Shown: piece by piece, positions 2,731 to 22,242 of the stretch
Layout of the letters: each line of letters opens with the position of its first letter
Numbering within the stretch: position 1 is the stretch's first letter
UHGV virus genome: UHGV-0374663
Strand: one strand, 5' to 3'
Origin: a virus
Length of the DNA stretch: 28,845 nt
Translations under genes and position numbers: made by a program
The notes under the pieces: model-generated
The model's input: the letters and a program-made list of their open reading frames with translations, nothing else
Told to the model about the DNA's origin: nothing
Databases searched by the model: none

Positions 2731-3032
2731 TGTCCTGTTCTCATTCAGTTGTATTACTGAATAACGCCTTAAAAATCGCCGTTATGAAAAATGGCGATTT
2801 GTCTCTTATTCGACTTGGTCTTGATAAAGAAAAACGCGAAATAACTGAATCTGTTTTCGCGATTTATCAGAACGAATTAAATCTCCTGTCTGATGTGGTC
2901 AATTTACTTGTTAAACGCGCTGTATTTCATAAGCAAATTTCATCCGTGGATGAACTGACAAAATTAACGACAGAAATCGCCAGCTATTGCGCTGATGAAT
3001 TTAAGAAGCTGAACGACAAAAGGAGCTGGTAA
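2727..3032 (+). CDS. Early hypothetical protein (P2 orf81 position)
   Basis: 101-aa ORF, translationally coupled to its neighbours. Confidence 0.55.
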
Positions 3033-3256
3033 TGCCGGACAACGTAGATTTTATTCAGGAACAACAGGCTGAATTACTGGAGCGCCAGATTAACGCGGCA
3101 AGGGTAAAGCATTGCGGTGTTTCTGCGCTGGTTTGCGAAGAGTGTGACGCGCCAATACCTGCTGCCCGTCGTGCGGCTTATCCGTCAGCCACGCGTTGTG
3201 TTTCCTGCCAGTCAGTCTTTGAAGCAAAAAACAAGCATTACCGGAGAATGGCATGA
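3032..3256 (+). CDS. Small C4 zinc-finger protein (TraR/DksA-like; P2 orf82 position)
   Basis: 74 aa with CEECDAPIP...RCVSCQ (a CxxC-N17-CxxC motif). Confidence 0.6.
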   Translation: MPDNVDFIQEQQAELLERQINAARVKHCGVSALVCEECDAPIPAARRAAYPSATRCVSCQSVFEAKNKHYRRMA

Positions 3257-3528
3257 GTATTCGTATTGAAATTGGCGAACGTTATGTCGTTACCAGTGAC
3301 AGCTTTCAGTTTATTCTCCACGAGAAAAAGAGAGCTGAAAGCGGTAAAAACGCCGGTCAGGAATGGCTGGCGGTGGTTGGTTATTACCCGAAATTAAGCC
3401 AGCTCGTTTCCGGCATGATGCATCACGATATTCTGACCGGAAGCGCAAAGTCTTTTGCTGATTTAAACGCGCAGGTTGAGCAACTCAGCAAGCGTTGTTC
3501 AGAGGCTTTTGGCTCATATGGCCGTTAA
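3253..3528 (+). CDS. Early hypothetical protein (P2 orf83 position)
   Basis: 91-aa ORF; its stop overlaps the start of gene A. Confidence 0.55.
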   Translation: MSIRIEIGERYVVTSDSFQFILHEKKRAESGKNAGQEWLAVVGYYPKLSQLVSGMMHHDILTGSAKSFADLNAQVEQLSKRCSEAFGSYGR

Positions 3529-5794
3529 AGCCTCCGGGCGTTTTGTCCCTCCGTCAGCATTTGCCGCAGGCACCGGTAAGGCGTTTACCGGTGCTTATGC
3601 ATGGAACGCGCCACGCGAGGCTGTCGGGCGCGAAAGACCCCTTACACGTGACGAGATGCGTCAGGTGCAAGGTGTTTTATCCACGATTAACCGCCTGCCT
3701 TACTTTTTGCGCTCGCTGTTTACTTCACGCTATGACTACATCCGGCGCAATAAAAGCCCGGTGCACGGGTTTTATTTCCTCACATCCACTTTTCAGCGTC
3801 GTTTATGGCCGCGCATTGAGCGTGTGAATCAGCGCCATGAAATGAACACCGACGCGTCGTTGCTGTTTCTGGCAGAGCGTGACCACTATGCGCGCCTGCC
3901 GGGAATGAATGACAAGGAGCTGAAAAAGTTTGCTGCCCGTATATCATCGCAGCTTTTCATGATGTATGAGGAACTCTGCGATGCCTGGGTGGATGCGCAT
4001 GGCGAAAAAGAATCGCTGTTTACGGATGAGGCGCAGGCTCACCTCTATGGTCATGTTGCTGGCGCTGCACGTGCTTTCAATATTTCCCCTCTCTACTGGA
4101 AAAAATACCGTAAAGGACAGATGACCACGAGGCAGGCATATTCTGCCATTGCCCGTCTGTTTAACGATGAGTGGTGGATTAGTCAGCTTCAAGGCCAGCG
4201 TATGCGCTGGCATGAGGCGTTACTGATTGCTGTCGGGGAGGTCAATAAAGACCGTTCTCCTTATGCCAGTAAACATGCCATTCGTGATGTGCGTGCACGC
4301 CGCCAGGCAAATCTGGAGTTTCTTAAATCGTGTGACCTTGAAAATAAGGAAACCGGCGAGCGCATTGACCTTATCAGTAAGGTGATGGGCAGTATTTCTA
4401 ATCCTGAAATTCGCCGGATGGAGCTGATGAACACCATTGCCGGTATTGAGCGTTACGCCGCTGCAGAGGGTGATGTGGGGATGTTTATCACGCTGACCGC
4501 GCCGTCAAAGTATCACCCGACACGTCAGGTCGGAAAAGGAGAAAGTAAAACCGTCCAGCTTAATCACGGCTGGAATGATGAGGCATTTAATCCAAAGGAT
4601 GCGCAGCGTTATCTCTGCCGTATCTGGAGCCTGGTGCGCACGGCATTCAAAGATAATGATTTACAGGTCTACGGTTTGCGAGTCGTCGAGCCACACCACG
4701 ACGGAACGCCGCACTGGCATATGATGCTTTTTTGTAATCCACGCCAGCGTAACCAGATTATCGAAATCATGCGTCGCTATGCGCTCAAAGAGGATGGCGA
4801 CGAAAGAGGAGCCGCGCGAAACCGTTTTCAGGCAAAACATCTTAACCGGGGCGGTGCTGCGGGATATATTGCTAAATACATCTCAAAAAATATCGACGGC
4901 TATGCACTGGATGGTCAGCTCGATAACGATACCGGCAGGCCGCTGAAAGACACTGCAGCGGCTGTTACCGCATGGGCGTCAACGTGGCGCATCCCACAAT
5001 TTAAAACGGTTGGTCTGCCGACAATGGGGGCTTACCGTGAACTACGCAAATTGCCTCGCGGCGTCAGCATTGCTGATGAGTTTGACGAGCGCGTCGAGGC
5101 TGCACGCGCCGCTGCAGACAGTGGTGATTTTGCGTTGTATATCAGCGCGCAGGGCGGGGCAAATGTCCCGCGCGATTGTCAGACTGTCAGGGTCGCCCGT
5201 AGCCCGTCGGATGACGTTAACGAGTACGAGGAAGAAGTCGAGAGAGTGGTCGGCATTTACGCGCCGCATCTCGGCGCGCGTCATATTCATATCACCAGAA
5301 CGACGGACTGGCGCATTGTGCCGAAAGTGCCGGTCGTTGAGCCTTTGACGTTAAAAAGCGGCATCGCCGCGCCTCGGAGTCCTGTCAATAACTGTGGAAA
5401 GCTCACCGGTGGTGATACTTCGTCACCGGCTCCCACGCCTTCTGAGCACGCCGCAGCAGTGCTTAATCTGGTTGATGACGGTGTTATCGAATGGAATGAC
5501 CCGGAGGTCGTGAGGGCGCTCAGAGGTGCATTAAAACACGAACTGAGAACACCAAATCGTCAGCAGAGAAACGGAAGCCCGTTAAAACCACATGAAATAG
5601 CGCCATCGGCCAGACTGACCCGGTCGGAACGAATGCAAATCACCCGTATCCGCGTTGACCTTGCTCAGAACGGTATCAGGCCTCAGCGATGGGAGCTTGA
5701 GGCGCTGGCGCGTGGCGCGACAGTAAATTATGACGGAATAAAATTCACGTATCCTGTCGCTGATGAGTGGCAGGGATTCACAATGGACCATTGA
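3518..5794 (+). CDS. A: Replication initiation endonuclease A (rolling-circle Rep, HUH family)
   Basis: ORF-track frame 3476..5794; start MAVKASGRF at 3518 matches the P2 gpA N-terminus as I recall it. HUH motif PHHDGTPHWHMMLF and active-site tyrosine region AKYISKNIDGY are present. Confidence 0.92.
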   Translation: MAVKASGRFVPPSAFAAGTGKAFTGAYAWNAPREAVGRERPLTRDEMRQVQGVLSTINRLPYFLRSLFTSRYDYIRRNKSPVHGFYFLTSTFQRRLWPRIERVNQRHEMNTDASLLFLAERDHYARLPGMNDKELKKFAARISSQLFMMYEELCDAWVDAHGEKESLFTDEAQAHLYGHVAGAARAFNISPLYWKKYRKGQMTTRQAYSAIARLFNDEWWISQLQGQRMRWHEALLIAVGEVNKDRSPYASKHAIRDVRARRQANLEFLKSCDLENKETGERIDLISKVMGSISNPEIRRMELMNTIAGIERYAAAEGDVGMFITLTAPSKYHPTRQVGKGESKTVQLNHGWNDEAFNPKDAQRYLCRIWSLVRTAFKDNDLQVYGLRVVEPHHDGTPHWHMMLFCNPRQRNQIIEIMRRYALKEDGDERGAARNRFQAKHLNRGGAAGYIAKYISKNIDGYALDGQLDNDTGRPLKDTAAAVTAWASTWRIPQFKTVGLPTMGAYRELRKLPRGVSIADEFDERVEAARAAADSGDFALYISAQGGANVPRDCQTVRVARSPSDDVNEYEEEVERVVGIYAPHLGARHIHITRTTDWRIVPKVPVVEPLTLKSGIAAPRSPVNNCGKLTGGDTSSPAPTPSEHAAAVLNLVDDGVIEWNDPEVVRALRGALKHELRTPNRQQRNGSPLKPHEIAPSARLTRSERMQITRIRVDLAQNGIRPQRWELEALARGATVNYDGIKFTYPVADEWQGFTMDH

Positions 5795-5903
5795 TGATTA
5801 ACATGAAAGAATTATGGAGCTTGCTTATATCGTGTTATGTCAGTTTACTGGATACAGGGCAAGTGAATGCCCCTTTCCATGAATTAGATTAAAGGCTTGC
5901 AAA

Positions 5904-7235
5904 ATGAACAATAACAGTCAGAAAGCTTTGAGTAAGAAGAAAACCAAGAAAACCAAAAAGAAGTCGCTTACCCCTGAACAAAAAGCATTGCAAGCAGAAC
6001 AAGCAGCAAAAAAAGCGCAAATTATAGAGAATAGGCGCTCTATTACAGCTCATGCTATTAACCTTTTTCAGCAATATACAGCACTCCGTAAAAAAGGATT
6101 AGATAGTTCCACTGCTACTTTGCAAGCTTATGCTGATTATGAAAAAGTACATGGACATAAATTCCTTAGTTCTATCTCTATGTGGACAAAAATCAAAACT
6201 GAAGCAGGGATTCGGATCTATGATCGTGAGAGACAAGATAGTCGTAAATCGCTTAATCTTGCTAAGATCCCAACCCGTTTAGAGGCTAAGCGTAGTGTAC
6301 TGACACAGAATCAAAAGAAAGTACATAACCAGAATGCAAATACATTACGCTTAATCGGTGGCAAAAAGCTACCTGTAACATCTATGGGGCTTATTGTATG
6401 TCCTGTCTGCGAGATACATATAAAAGATAGTGCTATAGAGTGGCATTTACGACACAACCACGTAGATCATATAGATAACCCGTTTACTAACCCTATAGTA
6501 GCTCCGGTTGATACTTTAGAAGAGGCTGTAGAAATACGAGACCTACTAATTGGTGATAAAACACTTCCGATTAAATCTAGTACTATTAATATGGGGAGTG
6601 ACAAGAAAGATAAACGTTATTTTAATAAGCAAGTTTATCAAACGGCATTGCTAACAATGACACAATCAGAAGCGTGGAAACTCGCGACTGATGAAGAATC
6701 TAGTATGACTTTTTTAAGCAATCAGTACATAAGTCCATTAACATCACCGGAACCCAATAATGAAATATCTCTTATCATGGATGGAACAGCTATAGCCATT
6801 AATGAAGGTCTAACTAATCCTTTAAAAGCCGCAAACGATACCTGTGCTACAGGACGAACAGTCGAGGTTACTCATAAAGTCCGTCATGCTGGAGATCAAG
6901 CTGATTTCAAACGCCGTGTTTGGGATAACTTCAATGGCAGATGTGCTATTACTGGCTATCCATTGCCAGAGGGGATATTGGAAGCCGCACATATTGAAGC
7001 AATAACAGAAGCGGCAAATAATAACACATCTAATGGCCTGTTACTTGAAGTAAGTTTGCACCGAATGTTTGATAAAGGATTGATGGGGATTAATCCAGAG
7101 GACTTAACGGTTCATTTCTCTATTAATTGTATCCACAAAACTATGTTTGAGGGTAAAACTCTACAACCACATCATGTAGAACTTGATGCTGACAAGTTGA
7201 TGACAAAATGGAAAAAGTTCAATGATAAGCGTTAA
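5904..7235 (+). CDS. Cargo protein: Lys-rich N-terminus + Zn-finger-like motif + C-terminal HNH nuclease domain
   Basis: 443-aa ORF in an AT-rich segment. HNH motif CAITG...LEAAHI...NGLLLEVSLHRMFDKG (aa 347-391, nt 6942..7073). C166-x2-C169-x11-H181-x2-H184-x-H186 motif (nt 6399..6470). Low-complexity KKKTKKTKKK at aa 11-20. Shine-Dalgarno-like AAAGG upstream of the ATG. Confidence 0.8.
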   Translation: MNNNSQKALSKKKTKKTKKKSLTPEQKALQAEQAAKKAQIIENRRSITAHAINLFQQYTALRKKGLDSSTATLQAYADYEKVHGHKFLSSISMWTKIKTEAGIRIYDRERQDSRKSLNLAKIPTRLEAKRSVLTQNQKKVHNQNANTLRLIGGKKLPVTSMGLIVCPVCEIHIKDSAIEWHLRHNHVDHIDNPFTNPIVAPVDTLEEAVEIRDLLIGDKTLPIKSSTINMGSDKKDKRYFNKQVYQTALLTMTQSEAWKLATDEESSMTFLSNQYISPLTSPEPNNEISLIMDGTAIAINEGLTNPLKAANDTCATGRTVEVTHKVRHAGDQADFKRRVWDNFNGRCAITGYPLPEGILEAAHIEAITEAANNNTSNGLLLEVSLHRMFDKGLMGINPEDLTVHFSINCIHKTMFEGKTLQPHHVELDADKLMTKWKKFNDKR

Positions 7236-7326
7236 CATGACTTCTTCTGGCGCAGCGAGGCATTAGATTTAATTATGTATTATGATTTAATTTGGGGCGT
7301 GATTTGTTATATGGGGAATAGATTAT

Positions 7327-7746
7327 ATGGTGACGCTTGATACTGTTTATTGGAAATTTGGTTATGCTTCGGAAGCAGCTCAATTACTGGAGACTGAGTT
7401 GATAAATATTATCACTGAGTATGATATGAGTCAGGGGAAAGATATACAGTCGCTGAAAAAACAGTTTTTAGAAATGGATAAATACACGCTGGGTAGATTG
7501 AATTACGCACTGAAGTCTAGGATGGTGGAGGATGCTGATACACTGGAGCGTGTGTCTGATGCTCTTAAAGCCAGAAACTACTTAGCACATGACTTTTATC
7601 GCAAACATGCTGAAGGTAAATTCACTCCGGAAGGAAGGCAGAGAATGCTTGCCGACTTAAATAGTGTACATCACATAATTTTTGAGGCTTACCGCAAGGT
7701 TCTGCAACTAAGCGACATTGAAATTCCTCCTTTAGAGCATGATTAA
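7327..7746 (+). CDS. Cargo protein 2: small hypothetical protein, likely co-transcribed with the HNH protein
   Basis: 139-aa ORF 91 bp downstream of the HNH gene on the same strand, same AT-rich composition, GGGGAA Shine-Dalgarno 8 nt upstream; no motif recognised. Confidence 0.65.
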   Translation: MVTLDTVYWKFGYASEAAQLLETELINIITEYDMSQGKDIQSLKKQFLEMDKYTLGRLNYALKSRMVEDADTLERVSDALKARNYLAHDFYRKHAEGKFTPEGRQRMLADLNSVHHIIFEAYRKVLQLSDIEIPPLEHD

Positions 7747-7874
7747 ATCTTGCATGCATTAGATGCATTGGTTTGCATGCATCATTCGTTATTTTCATTT
7801 TCGAGTGCCGTCAGTGTCGGCATGGTTTTGACGGATTCATACATGTGCATTAAAACCTCCCCATGAAGCGGGCG

Positions 7875-7893
7875 GGCGAGGCGGGGAAAGCAC
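7875..7893. other. cos site (P2-type 19-nt cohesive end GGCGAGGCGGGGAAAGCAC)
   Basis: Exact match to the P2 cohesive-end sequence as I remember it, located between the cargo region and the 3' end of portal gene Q, where the virion right and left ends are joined in a prophage. Confidence 0.7.
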
Positions 7894-8035
7894 TGCGCGC
7901 TGGCGGTGGTGCTGATTTTATTTTTTCAGCGTCTGAGCGCGTCGTGATGGCGTTTAGATTGTGCGCCGGGGCGTTGGTTTGTCTGCGGGCTGTTTTGCGC
8001 GGTGGTGAGCGTGTGAGGGCGTGATGACGGGTTGT

Positions 8036-8058
8036 AAAAAAGCCGCCCGCAGGCGGCG
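8036..8058 (-). terminator. Rho-independent terminator downstream of Q
   Basis: On the minus strand: GCCGCC-(4-nt loop)-GGCGGC followed by TTTTTT, beginning 5 nt after the Q stop codon. Confidence 0.6.
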
Positions 8059-8062
8059 ATGT

Positions 8063-9097
8063 TCAGCCGTTGTCAGTGTCCAGTGAGTAGTTTTTAAAGC
8101 GGATGACCTCCTGACCGAGCCAGCCGTTTATCTCGCGGATCCTGTCCTGTAACGGGATAAGCTCATTGCGGACAAAGACCTTTGCCACTTTCTCAATATC
8201 TCCCAGTGACCCGACGTTCTCCGGCTTGCCGCCCATCAACTGAAAGGGGATGCGGTGTGCGTCCAGCAGGTCTGCGGCGCTGGCTTTTTTGATATTAAAA
8301 AAATCGTCCTTCGTCGCCACTTCACTGAGCGGGATAATTTTAATGCCGTCGGCTTTCCCTTGCGGGGCATAGAGAAACAGATTTTTAAAGTTGTTGCGGC
8401 CTTTCGACTTCACCATGTTTTCGCGGAGCATTTCGATATCGTTGCGATCCTGCACGGCATCGGTGACGTACATGATGTATCCGGCATGTGCGCCGTTTTC
8501 GTAATACTTGCGGCGGAACAGCGTGGCCGACTCATTCAGCCAGGCAGAGTTAAGGGCGCTGAGATATTCCGGCAGGCCGTACAGCTCCTGATTAATATCC
8601 GGCTCCAGCAGGTGAAACACGGAGCCGGGCGCGAAAGGTGTCGGCTCATGGAAGGACGGCACCCACCAGTAAACATCCTCTTCCACGCCACGGCGGGTAT
8701 ATTTTGCCGGTGAGGTTTCCAGTCTGATGACCTTACCGGTGGTGCTGTAACGCTTTTCCAGAAACGCATTACCGAACACCAGAAAATCCAGCACAAAGCG
8801 GCTGAAATCCTGCTGGGAAAGCCACGGATGCGGGATAAATGTCGAGGCCAGAATATTACGTTTGACGTAAATCGGTGAGCTGTGATGCACGGCAGCACGC
8901 AGGCTTTTTGCCAGACCGGTAAAGCTGACCGGTGGCTCATACCATCTGCCGTTACTGATGCACTCGACGTAATCCAGAATGTCACGGCGGTCGAGTACCG
9001 GCACCGGCTCACCAAAGGTGAATGCCTCCATTTTCGGGGCGCTGGCGGTCATTTTTTTTGCCGCAGGTTGCGGTGTTTTCCCTTTTTTCTTGCTCAT
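8063..9097 (-). CDS. Q: Portal protein
   Basis: 344-aa ORF, same length as P2 gpQ; adjacent to cos and overlapping the P stop. Confidence 0.95.
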   Translation of the reverse strand: MSKKKGKTPQPAAKKMTASAPKMEAFTFGEPVPVLDRRDILDYVECISNGRWYEPPVSFTGLAKSLRAAVHHSSPIYVKRNILASTFIPHPWLSQQDFSRFVLDFLVFGNAFLEKRYSTTGKVIRLETSPAKYTRRGVEEDVYWWVPSFHEPTPFAPGSVFHLLEPDINQELYGLPEYLSALNSAWLNESATLFRRKYYENGAHAGYIMYVTDAVQDRNDIEMLRENMVKSKGRNNFKNLFLYAPQGKADGIKIIPLSEVATKDDFFNIKKASAADLLDAHRIPFQLMGGKPENVGSLGDIEKVAKVFVRNELIPLQDRIREINGWLGQEVIRFKNYSLDTDNG

Positions 9098-19202: not shown

Positions 19203-19806
19203 TTCGCGACTGCTGCCAACCGGCTCATCACCGCTTGAAGTTGCCGCCGCAAAAGCCTGTGCGGAAATTGAAAAAACACCGGTCAGTATTCGTGAGCTGT
19301 GGAACCCGGACACCTGCCCGGCAAATCTGCTGCCGTGGCTGGCGTGGTCATTTTCGGTTGACCGCTGGGATGATAAGTGGCCGGAAGCGACAAAACGCGC
19401 TGTTATCCGCGATGCGTATTTCATTCACTGCCATAAGGGCACTATTGGTGCGATTCGCCGTGTGGTGGAGCCGCTCGGCTATCTGATTGAGGTGAGGGAG
19501 TGGTGGCAGCTCAACGAGGAGCCGGGGACGTTCCGCATCGTTGTTGGCGTGCTTGAGCAGGGTATTACCGAGGAAATGTATCAGGAGCTGGAGCGCCTCG
19601 TTGCTGATGCAAAACCGGCAAGCCGCCATCTGACGGGACTGGCTATCAGTTTAAGTACAACCGGCAACATTTTTGCCGGTGCGGGATGCTATCACGGTGA
19701 CGCCCTGACGGTTTATCCCTACACACCGGAGGCCATTATTGTCGGAGGGGATTATTTCCCGGCCTCGGCCATTCATTTAATTGATAACCTGAGAGTAAAC
19801 GCATGA
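19195..19806 (+). CDS. I: Baseplate protein I
   Basis: 203-aa ORF with GGAGG upstream, between J and H. The start is less certain; my recollection of P2 gpI is shorter. Confidence 0.8.
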   Translation: MSDSRLLPTGSSPLEVAAAKACAEIEKTPVSIRELWNPDTCPANLLPWLAWSFSVDRWDDKWPEATKRAVIRDAYFIHCHKGTIGAIRRVVEPLGYLIEVREWWQLNEEPGTFRIVVGVLEQGITEEMYQELERLVADAKPASRHLTGLAISLSTTGNIFAGAGCYHGDALTVYPYTPEAIIVGGDYFPASAIHLIDNLRVNA

Positions 19807-20486
19807 CAGTGAAATACTACGCCATTCTGACTAATCAGGGCGCAGCACGGCTGGCTAACGCGACGATGCTCGGCAGTAAGCTGAATCTGACGCAAATGGC
19901 CGTTGGTGATGCGAATGGTGTCTTACCGACACCAGACCCGGCACAGACAAAACTGATTAACCAGAAACGCATCGCGCCGCTGAATCTTCTGAGTGTTGAC
20001 CCGAACAATCAGAGCCAGATTATTGCGGAGCAAATCATCCCTGAAAACGAGGGCGGATTCTGGATCCGTGAGATTGGACTTTATGATGATGAAGGCGTAC
20101 TCATTGCGGTGGCGAACTGCCCGGAAACGTACAAACCGCAGTTGCAGGAAGGCAGTGGTCGTACCCAGACTATCCGCATGATTCTGGTTGTCACGAACAC
20201 CGAAGCCATCACGCTGAAAATCGACCCGGCTGTGGTACTGGCAACACGTAAATATGTGGATGACAAAATTTCTGAGCACGAACAGTCACGACGCCACCCG
20301 GACGCCTCGCTGACCGCAAAAGGTTTTACTCAGTTAAGCAGTGCAACTAACAGTACATCTGAAACACTGGCCGCAACACCGAAAGCGGTAAAGGCTGCAT
20401 ATGACCTGGCTAACGGGAAATATACCGCTCAGGATGCGACTACGGCACGAAAAGGCCTTGTTAAACTCAGTAGCGCCACAAAGTGA
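19803..20486 (+). CDS. H: Tail fibre protein H, N-terminal part only (227 codons, premature stop inside the collar-repeat region)
   Basis: Ends with P2-H-type repeats (SSATNSTSETLAATPKAVKAAYDLANGKYTAQDATTARKGLVKLSSAT) then a stop; P2 H is about 669 aa. Confidence 0.75.
   Translation: MTVKYYAILTNQGAARLANATMLGSKLNLTQMAVGDANGVLPTPDPAQTKLINQKRIAPLNLLSVDPNNQSQIIAEQIIPENEGGFWIREIGLYDDEGVLIAVANCPETYKPQLQEGSGRTQTIRMILVVTNTEAITLKIDPAVVLATRKYVDDKISEHEQSRRHPDASLTAKGFTQLSSATNSTSETLAATPKAVKAAYDLANGKYTAQDATTARKGLVKLSSATK
20397..20482. repeat. Left arm of a perfect 86-bp inverted repeat within the H collar-repeat coding sequence
   Basis: 20397..20482 is the exact reverse complement of 20708..20793, checked base by base. 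Confidence 0.85.
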
Positions 20487-20862
20487 GTATGGCGTTTGCC
20501 GGTTGTCTTCCATTAGCCAGGTCGTATGCAGCCTTTACCGCTTTTGGCGTTGCAGCCAGTGTTTCAGATGTGCTGTTGGTTGCACTACTGAGCTGAACAA
20601 GCCCTTTTTGCGTCGTGGTGGCGTTCTGGGCGGTATATTTCCCGTTAGCCAGGTCATACGCCGCCTTGACCGCTTTTGGCGTTGCAGCCAGTGTTTCAGA
20701 CGTGCTGTTTGTGGCGCTACTGAGTTTAACAAGGCCTTTTCGTGCCGTAGTCGCATCCTGAGCGGTATATTTCCCGTTAGCCAGGTCATATGCGGCCGTA
20801 GATCGTGCCGCGTTAACTGCACTGACAAGTGTTGGTCGTGCAATTCTTAGTAAGCCCAGCAC
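20467..20862 (-). pseudogene. Inverted fragment encoding H-type collar repeats on the opposite strand
   Basis: Minus-strand ORF (GTG start) translating to two or three copies of ...NSTSETLAATPKAVKAAYDLANGKYTAQ...; it is the mirror of the end of the H N-terminal ORF and is unlikely to be an independent gene. Confidence 0.4.
20708..20793. repeat. Right arm of the perfect 86-bp inverted repeat
   Basis: Reverse complement of 20397..20482. Confidence 0.85.
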
Positions 20863-20870
20863 ACAGGGAG

Positions 20871-20896
20871 TTCTTGATTATCTTGGTTTGGGAGAA
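20871..20896 (+). other. DNA-invertase crossover-like 26-bp sequence (hix/gix/cix-like) inside the tail-fibre reading frame
   Basis: TTCTTGATTATC-TT-GGTTTGGGAGAA matches hixL (TTCTTGAAAACC-AA-GGTTTTTGATAA, from memory) at 18 of 24 half-site positions; it encodes LDYLGLGEG in frame. Confidence 0.4.
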
Positions 20897-21364
20897 GGCT
20901 CTGCATTGCCTGTTGGTGTACCTGTTCCGTGGCCCTCCGCAACCCCGCCAACGGGCTGGCTGAAATGCAACGGCGCTGCCTTTGATAAGGTGAAATATCC
21001 CCATCTTGCTACAGCATATCCATCAGGGAAACTACCTGATCTCCGTGGTGAGTTTATTCGTGGATGGGATGACAGGCGTGGTATTGATGCAGGACGTGCT
21101 TTATTGAGCATTCAGACTGGGATGCTGGAAAAACACCGCCATATTGTTGTTGCCAACGATGGGTATGATTCAAAAGAGGAATGGGAACTGGCGACAATCT
21201 TCAGAAGAGCATATACGCAAGGCCGGGGGCTTGATGCTGCCGATGCCGGAGGAACTCTGATTCCATCACCAACGCTACATACACGAGGGAGTATTGGTAA
21301 CACAGGTGGGAGCGAAACCCGTCCACGAAATATTGCATTTAACTATATCGTGAGAGCTGCATAA
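20888..21364 (+). CDS. Tail fibre C-terminal receptor-binding tip (Mu S / P1 S / lambda Stf-like), lacking a canonical ATG
   Basis: Ends ...TRPRNIAFNYIVRAA, typical of Mu/P1/Stf-type fibre tips. The frame is open from 20762 but the only start-like codon is TTG at 20888; it looks like the detached distal part of H. Confidence 0.7.
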   Translation: MGEGSALPVGVPVPWPSATPPTGWLKCNGAAFDKVKYPHLATAYPSGKLPDLRGEFIRGWDDRRGIDAGRALLSIQTGMLEKHRHIVVANDGYDSKEEWELATIFRRAYTQGRGLDAADAGGTLIPSPTLHTRGSIGNTGGSETRPRNIAFNYIVRAA

Positions 21365-21966
21365 TGGATAAAGCCGTATTAAATAGCGAACTTATTGCCA
21401 CGAAGGCGGGGAATATTACCGTCTATAACTATGATGGTGAAACACGGGAATATATTTCCACTTCAAATGAATATCTTGCCGTTGGTGTCGGTATCCCGGC
21501 ATATTCCTGTTTAGATGCTCCTGGCACATATAAGGCGGGTTATGCTATCTGCCGTTCTATGGATTTAAAATCATGGGAATATGTGTCAGACCATCGTGGT
21601 GAAATTGTCTATAGCACCGAAACAGGTGAATCAAAAGAAATCAAAACTCCGGGTGATTACCCTGAAAATGCAACCACTATCGCCCCGTCAACGCCATACG
21701 ATAAATGGGATGGTGAGAAATGGGTGACGGATACCGAGGCACAGCATAGCGCCGCAGTAGATGCAGCAGAAGCACAGCGCCAGTCACTGATTGATGCAGC
21801 AATGGCTTCCATTAGTCTGATTCAGCTGAAATTACAGGCCGGGCGGAAACTGACGCAGGCAGAAACAACCCGGCTTAACGCTGTGCTGGATTACATTGAC
21901 GCGGTGACGGCAACAGATACCAGCACCGCGCCTGATGTTATCTGGCCTGAACTGCCGGAGGCGTAG
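21364..21966 (+). CDS. G: Tail fibre assembly protein (Tfa/U-like)
   Basis: 200 aa immediately after the fibre tip; C-terminal ...DVIWPELPEA is typical of Tfa chaperones. Confidence 0.85.
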   Translation: MDKAVLNSELIATKAGNITVYNYDGETREYISTSNEYLAVGVGIPAYSCLDAPGTYKAGYAICRSMDLKSWEYVSDHRGEIVYSTETGESKEIKTPGDYPENATTIAPSTPYDKWDGEKWVTDTEAQHSAAVDAAEAQRQSLIDAAMASISLIQLKLQAGRKLTQAETTRLNAVLDYIDAVTATDTSTAPDVIWPELPEA

Positions 21967-21976
21967 GCCATTCAAT

Positions 21977-22019
21977 ATCTGGAGCACTGGAAATTTCGAC
22001 AAGTTCCAGTGCTCCAGAT
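21977..22019. repeat. Perfect 16-bp stem hairpin (ATCTGGAGCACTGGAA / TTCCAGTGCTCCAGAT) just downstream of tfa
   Basis: Inverted repeat with an 11-nt loop and no U-tract; possible terminator or RNA processing/regulatory structure. Confidence 0.4.
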
Positions 22020-22150
22020 AATCGACTGTGTGGGAACAGGCAGGACGATTGCTGGCTGCGAGGGAATCACGTCAACGTGTGGCGCTGATTTTTGATATTG
22101 ACCTGTCCACGCTCTATAAAAAATTCGCCTCATCAGCGACAAAGAATAAA

Positions 22151-22158
22151 TTGTGCCA
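22151..22158 (+). promoter_or_regulatory. TTGTGCCA element upstream of FI (putative Ogr-dependent late promoter PF)
   Basis: Same 8-mer as upstream of V; 92 nt upstream of the FI ATG. Confidence 0.3.
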
Positions 22159-22242
22159 CCCATCAGCCAACCGGGACAAATAGCCTGACATCTCCGGCAC
22201 ACATGAAAATACCACTCACCCATTAACCACGGAGTTAAACGG

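Follow-up and report, generated by a model that had tools for sequence, protein, structure and literature searches.

The prophage UHGV-0374663 carries its tail-fibre gene H in pieces, with fibre-repeat sequence in the wrong orientation between two perfectly matching inverted arms, and the question raised by this locus is whether such an arrangement is a programmed switch, a fibre encoded by two genes, an artefact of sequencing or assembly, or a mutation that destroyed the gene. The window, i.e. the whole stretch of 28,845 nucleotides that was analysed, holds a complete P2-like Escherichia coli prophage running from the integrase to ogr. In a comparison with strain 746 (L004), the closest relative among complete genomes, 37 genes other than H were full length and collinear, without a single frameshift or truncation, and the encoded proteins showed 94-100% identity, the immunity genes excepted. 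A cargo module at 5.8-8 kb was the sole part of the window lacking a counterpart in that strain, and among the genes compared H alone was broken. The layout typical of P2 gpH is kept, in that genes J and I are followed by PF12571, the PF03406 shaft repeats, the receptor-binding tip and the Caudo_TAP chaperone. All parts of a gpH-type tail fibre are thus present, split over separate ORFs, and the gene belongs to this family as a pseudogene. The J protein was recovered in 4,313 blocks together with many different H alleles, and is therefore no guide to sister prophages. The parts of the locus are listed below, where L082 is an intact allele of H found in IMG/VR contig 2703718839_000012 and L001 is the P2-like sequence KC618326.

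19803..20486, plus strand: truncated H ORF of 227 aa, with PF12571 (E 5e-63) and one PF03406 unit
20393..20482, plus strand: left arm, native H nt 591-680 in normal orientation
20482..20483: junction 1, where H nt 680 meets reverse-complemented nt 906, with a 1-nt (A) overlap
20483..20707, minus strand: inverted spacer of 225 bp, H nt 681-906 (about codons 228-302) in reverse complement
20708..20797, minus strand: right arm, a second copy of H nt 591-680 in inverted orientation
20797..20798: junction 2, where reverse-complemented nt 591 meets H nt 958, with a 0-nt overlap
20798..21364, plus strand: C-terminal remainder of H (codons 320-507), left stranded and bearing the Collar (PF07484) tip, 567/567 identical to L082
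20871-20896, plus strand: orphan crossover site of 26 bp, TTCTTGATTATCTTGGTTTGGGAGAA, homologous to the perfect 31-nt inverted repeat that flanks the invertible segment of L001
21364..21966, plus strand: intact tfa / gpG-like tail-fibre assembly chaperone (PF02413), 100% identical to WP_016235447
22028..22183, plus strand: invertase remnant of 51 aa, C-terminal helix-turn-helix only (PF02796 HTH_7, E 3e-6)

The truncated ORF comprises the baseplate-proximal N-terminal domain and the first fibre repeat, and its codons 1-226 are identical to those of intact alleles. It ends at 20486, as the original prediction had it, with a TGA (20484-20486) that was made by junction 1. On the minus strand the sequence is open across 20467..20862 and contains two units of the PF03406 'Phage tail fibre repeat' (E 7.5e-43). 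The proposal of repeats on the opposite strand was thus right, although the name 'collar' given to them was not, as the Collar domain (PF07484) resides in the tip. Exact reverse complementarity of the arms (20397-20482 and 20708-20793), as reported originally, was confirmed, and they can be widened to 90 nt (20393-20482 and 20708-20797) at the cost of a single mismatch at 20396/20794. Folding of the arm region as single-stranded DNA yielded a 93-bp stem with a z-score of -15.8, and as 0 of 100 shuffles did as well, the inverted repeat cannot be attributed to chance. The frame of the tip is open from 20762, which had also been noted, and its first start codon is a TTG at 20888 that has no Shine-Dalgarno sequence; an ATG does not occur before 21122, the only in-frame ATG of the tip frame.

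Comparison with the intact H genes of related prophages, put forward with the original prediction in the form of a dot-plot and carried out here by BLAST, explains the layout fully in terms of three blocks. In close relatives H is a single gene of 507 aa (1,524 bp), with the same chaperone gene downstream; the expected length of around 669 aa therefore does not apply, as the intact allele of this particular gene has 507 aa. Positions 19803-20482 of the window correspond to H nt 1-680 (L003 4001-4680), 20482-20797 to H nt 591-906 in reverse complement (L003 4591-4906, 99.4%) and 20798-21364 to H nt 958-1524, where the match runs on beyond the gene (20798-22242 being L003 4958-6402). In other words, 277 bp of H have been replaced by the reverse complement of 316 bp. 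Two copies of H nt 591-680 now face in opposite directions, and this 90-bp inverted duplication constitutes the 'perfect arms', while 51 bp are missing at junction 2 (H nt 907-957, codons 303-319, ALAGLATAADKLPYFTG). Of the options offered originally, an inversion-plus-indel that inactivated the fibre describes the locus exactly: compared with an otherwise identical intact allele, 316 bp stand reversed in place of 277, 90 bp are duplicated and 51 bp deleted. What had been taken for a junction interrupting the reading frame, the 28 bp at 20483-20510, is the antisense of native H codons 293-302 (RQPANAILT). It was correctly foreseen that a single flip between the arms does not restore H (the frame then meets a stop at codon 307), but the reason is another one than these 28 bp: the right arm stays antisense, the frame shifts and the 51 bp remain missing.

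The intact allele of L082 matches the three blocks in 680/680, 315/316 and 567/567 positions. Together the blocks cover every base of H in the window and differ from L082 at one of 1,563 nt, and the flanks of L082 match in 2649/2649 and 3433/3434 positions. The sole difference within H is found at 20794, 4 nt from junction 2, where the window has a G and every intact allele examined (nine compared) an A. A variant at 20463 with its mirror at 20727, which is absent from most relatives, is shared by both arms and by L082, and the arms were therefore copied from the lineage's own sequence. This makes gene conversion, one of two earlier explanations for the identity of the arms, needless; the other, a recent event, agrees with the near-identity to L082 in all other respects. 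Judged from this comparison, the lesion amounts to a single event and one substitution close to it, the background being otherwise unchanged, and would as such be very recent.

Several other origins were considered and dropped. Homologous recombination between pre-existing inverted repeats does not apply, as the intact allele has direct repeats only. A chimera of two different prophages is incompatible with three blocks that all match one and the same allele, position 20794 apart. Finally, a diversity-generating retroelement or another form of templated hypermutation was discarded on the grounds that no reverse transcriptase is found among the genes of the window, and that one base difference is seen instead of adenine-directed variation.

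To what extent the arrangement occurs elsewhere bears on several readings at once. A megablast search with 20440-20840 recovered no genome spanning either junction among 5,426 complete E. coli genomes (0/5,426), the best coverage being 79% and due to the inverted block alone. The exact sequence of junction 1 had 0 matches in 185,579 representative genomes, IMG/VR and the JGI metagenome contigs, and that of junction 2 had 0 matches in IMG/VR, the viral collection in which it was sought. Exact-protein look-up returned no record for the 227-aa stub, nor for the 131-aa minus-strand ORF, and a second, independent assembly with the rearrangement was not found. Around 150 related H loci were screened, taken from other genomes as well as viral contigs, and none had a long inverted repeat inside the repeat region of H: the inverted repeats of at least 40 bp consisted only of the Hv/Hv' pairs of true invertible segments, and the same script did recover the repeat of the window. 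The best reading of these searches is that the rearrangement is private to this prophage copy. Three assemblies with a 158-aa tip protein were considered as further cases of a split H and rejected, since all three have an intact, collinear H of 507 aa. The H genes of L005 and L006 seem disrupted at first sight; what is seen there are runs of N in the scaffolds.

The same result could be expected if the arrangement had been created in the laboratory or the computer, while the source cells hold a collinear, intact H as in L082. Chimeric molecules or reads, for instance amplification chimeras, or a mis-built consensus would then be responsible. Inverted chimeras are known products of strand-displacement amplification. 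Besides its absence from all other public sequences searched, such an explanation is favored by the existence of an intact twin allele on record (L082), from which the window departs only in the rearrangement and one base in H, and by the difficulty of assembling H regions, as is apparent from the runs of N in L005 and L006 and from the many contigs that end inside H. Yet two separate junctions, 315 bp apart and with 0-1 nt of overlap, would both have had to win the consensus. Misjoins in graph- or overlap-based assembly arise at shared k-mers, and the ancestral sequence had no inverted repeat by which an assembler could be misled. The window is otherwise clean, as shown by the 37 other genes without frameshifts, and the assembly trouble seen elsewhere concerns the invertible segment, no longer present in this lineage. 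On balance we consider an artefact unlikely, and a real mutation probable.

Invertase-driven switches of the tail fibre do occur in P2-like prophages (PMC4272514), and KC618326 (L001) displays the full module, H-tfa-tfa'-Hv'-invertase, bounded by a perfect inverted repeat of 31 nt. One could accordingly propose that the 90-bp arms flank an invertible cassette which toggles the expression or the specificity of the fibre in a programmed or semi-programmed way, driven by a serine invertase acting in trans or by RecA; an inverted repeat of 90 bp would be long enough for homologous recombination. This proposal is rejected, because site-specific inversion is conservative and the event observed here is not, with 90 bp duplicated and 51 bp lost relative to the intact alleles. 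The real crossover site occurs once in the window (0 copies expected by chance), at the boundary between the constant and variable parts of H, and lies outside the inverted block, 74 bp downstream of it, whereas the arms are 90 bp of sequence coding for fibre repeats. The invertase has been reduced to the HTH_7 remnant, which is annotated as a pseudogene in relatives and represents a state common to those with an intact H, and there is no other recombinase near H in the window. As compared to L001, a deletion (5161-6423) has removed the second site and the alternative tip altogether, and the alternative chaperone and the invertase for the most part, from which we conclude that the programmed switch is already deleted in this lineage. 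Both orientations of the spacer are closed moreover, by a stop after codon 227 as seen and at codon 307 when flipped, and the arrangement is absent from the roughly 150 other H loci. A cassette of this kind is therefore highly improbable. The earlier suggestion of an intermediate in host-range switching fails on the same points: a non-conservative exchange, a single crossover site outside the block, a remnant of an invertase and no open H.

The window shares its gene family and neighbourhood with the switches of the Din family (Gin, Cin, Pin and Hin; Mu, P1, e14 and P2-like prophages). It differs from them in being bounded by 90-bp coding repeats instead of 26-bp sites, in lacking the enzyme, in the gain and loss of bases and in the lack of an alternative ORF. 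A perfect inverted repeat in a tail-fibre gene is, taken alone, no sign of a programmed switch.

What we propose instead, and consider likely on the basis of the allele comparison, is that the locus represents a null allele of H, to which a single, non-programmed rearrangement gave rise in the very recent ancestry of the present prophage copy. Synthesis would have proceeded forward to point 1 (H nt 680), jumped across to point 2 (nt 906) of the complementary strand, continued backward to point 3 (nt 591) and then resumed in the forward direction at point 4 (nt 958), which would amount to a double switch-and-return template switch inside one replication fork. The three 132-bp tandem repeats may have acted as the trigger for stalling. 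The order of the points along H, nt 591 < 680 < 906 < 958 or 3<1<2<4, matches type 3-1-2-4 of the four-point template-switch model of Loytynoja and Goldman 2017 (PMC5453318). In terms of this model the window consists of three ancestral fragments, the middle one reverse-complemented, with nothing left over, and it shares the product of type 3-1-2-4, a perfect inverted repeat round an inverted spacer accompanied by a small deletion. The copied fragment, at 316 bp, is far longer than in the human examples described with the model, which measure tens of bases. Inversions in E. coli that fall just short of reciprocal, accompanied by indels of tens of bp, have been put down to a switch of template within the fork (Lin et al. 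2011, PMC3161906), and a single replication fork can accommodate the 367-bp span in the window. The E. coli events show microhomologies of 3-30 bp; in the window, junction 1 has 1 nt and junction 2 has 0 nt.

A longer microhomology at shifted positions near junction 2, TTTAC, is present on both partners but misfits the observed join. Microhomology is expected for replicative mechanisms, although the four-point model itself makes no such demand. Because the homology at the junctions is only 1 and 0 nt, we keep staggered breakage, fill-in and end joining as an alternative route that would lead to the same product. The substitution at 20794, right beside junction 2, is compatible with error-prone synthesis as well as with the processing of ends, and proves nothing. 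We infer the mechanism from the product, and microhomology this short leaves a priming-based template switch a candidate. The structural layout is explained in either case, by a type of rearrangement known before, and the locus does not constitute a new biological system. A wider possibility is that the repeat arrays of the fibre shaft are reshuffled by template switching and that the window was caught in the act, which we regard as very doubtful. If true, the 90-bp repeat would permit a RecA-driven flip-flop, later deletions could give rise to new in-frame variants of the shaft, and template switching during replication would generate fibre diversity in general as well as doing damage.

Under the preferred reading of a null allele, the baseplate-binding stub of 227 aa would be the only product of H and the tip would go untranslated. 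The chaperone probably loses its translational coupling, because its ATG overlaps the stop codon of H (TAATG, 21362-21366), and may suffer from polarity too. Induced particles are predicted to lack fibres, unless another prophage complements the defect. RecA could flip the spacer between the 90-bp arms, with neither isomer encoding H.

One might object that stub and Collar tip are two separate products which together build a functional fibre. The frame of the tip is indeed intact and identical to that of functional alleles, and a TTG at 20906 is preceded, at a distance of 11 nt, by a GGGAG motif. The first start of this frame, by contrast, has neither an ATG nor a Shine-Dalgarno sequence, and the tip is devoid of a part that could join it to the baseplate or the shaft. 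In addition, 17 residues are missing and some 75 shaft codons lie antisense. The possibility that homologous prophages use the same arrangement as a normal two-gene fibre, which had been raised at the outset, found no example among the around 150 related H loci, and in the three assemblies with the 158-aa product H is one intact ORF. We therefore hold a functional two-gene fibre to be most improbable.

The prophage, complete to all appearances, probably makes no infectious particles by itself. For annotation purposes H should be treated as one pseudogene and not as two or three small genes. The biological weight of the case is little; its value is a modest one, as a textbook-type example from bacteria, clean and fully resolved, in which an inversion comes together with an inverted duplication and a deletion and can be set against its exact ancestral allele. 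Like ordinary tail-fibre pseudogenes of prophages, it implies that the function of H was lost in a resident prophage, but in this case the lesion is structural instead of a frameshift and the remaining prophage is intact. Other broken H genes encountered among the relatives carry a frameshift (L108) or a truncation (L020).

Between the chaperone gene (21364-21966) and the tail sheath gene FI, the window carries the scar of a deleted invertible segment. With KC618326 (L001), a relative in which the invertible H-tfa-tfa'-Hv'-invertase module is complete, as the reference, 1,263 bp (L001 5161-6423) are absent from the window. The scar contains the C-terminal stub of the second chaperone, in the opposite orientation, and a serine invertase remnant of 51 amino acids with an HTH_7 domain (22028-22183). 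The same scar is found in relatives with an intact H, and the deletion must thus be older than the lesion within H. The elements concerned are the following:

21967-22242, scar of the deleted invertible segment
21976-22020, palindrome of 20 nt, near-perfect, around a loop of 5 nt (TATCTGGAGCACTGGAAATT / AAGTTCCAGTGCTCCAGATA), just 3' of the chaperone stop codon
20871-20896, only surviving copy of the crossover site for the invertase, located in H where its constant part meets its variable part

The palindrome, which was also recovered in the related locus L002 and in the intact-H relative L003, may represent a putative bidirectional terminator between the formerly convergent chaperone genes. 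The crossover site encodes the stretch ...VLDYLGLGE...; its homologue in L001 is the perfect inverted repeat of 31 nt (4033-4063 / 5897-5927) that flanks the invertible segment there. A Pin-like invertase resident in another prophage could still bind the site in the window.

Two H pseudogenes were encountered in other related prophages, and an inverted repeat was present in neither of the two:

L108, 1239-1961, frameshift within the fibre repeats, leaving an ORF of 240 aa
L020, 3501-4169, from a Symbiopectobacterium MAG, truncated at 222 aa

The 158-aa tip fragment with the TTG start is listed as a gene product in three NCBI assemblies (L015, L016 and L017), which would be suggestive of a split H gene there. 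This was rejected, as H (2954-4477) is a single intact ORF of 507 aa in all three, and the listed product is a gene-calling or indexing oddity. Assembly trouble at H regions is general: in public scaffolds of related prophages, runs of N lie exactly across the invertible tail-fibre segment (L005, about 6600-6700; L006, about 6350-8770), and many IMG/VR contigs stop 600-1,400 bp into H.

Elsewhere in the window, the P2 variable spot that separates replication gene A from portal gene Q is occupied by a cargo module:

5904-7746, cargo module at this spot

Two proteins are encoded here: one of 443 aa, whose C-terminal part is an HNH_2 nuclease domain, and one of 139 aa without a family match. The former shows similarity to HNH models of PADLOC and also to the family of phosphorothioate-DNA restriction endonucleases, weak and below cutoff in both cases. 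The module is possibly an anti-phage defence cassette. In strain 746, the closest relative, ParB-N, a hypothetical protein and a Dcm methylase take its place. The immunity region (1054-1772) is mosaic, and identity to the closest relative is only 64% for the repressor-like protein and only 79% for Cox, against 94-100% for the late genes.
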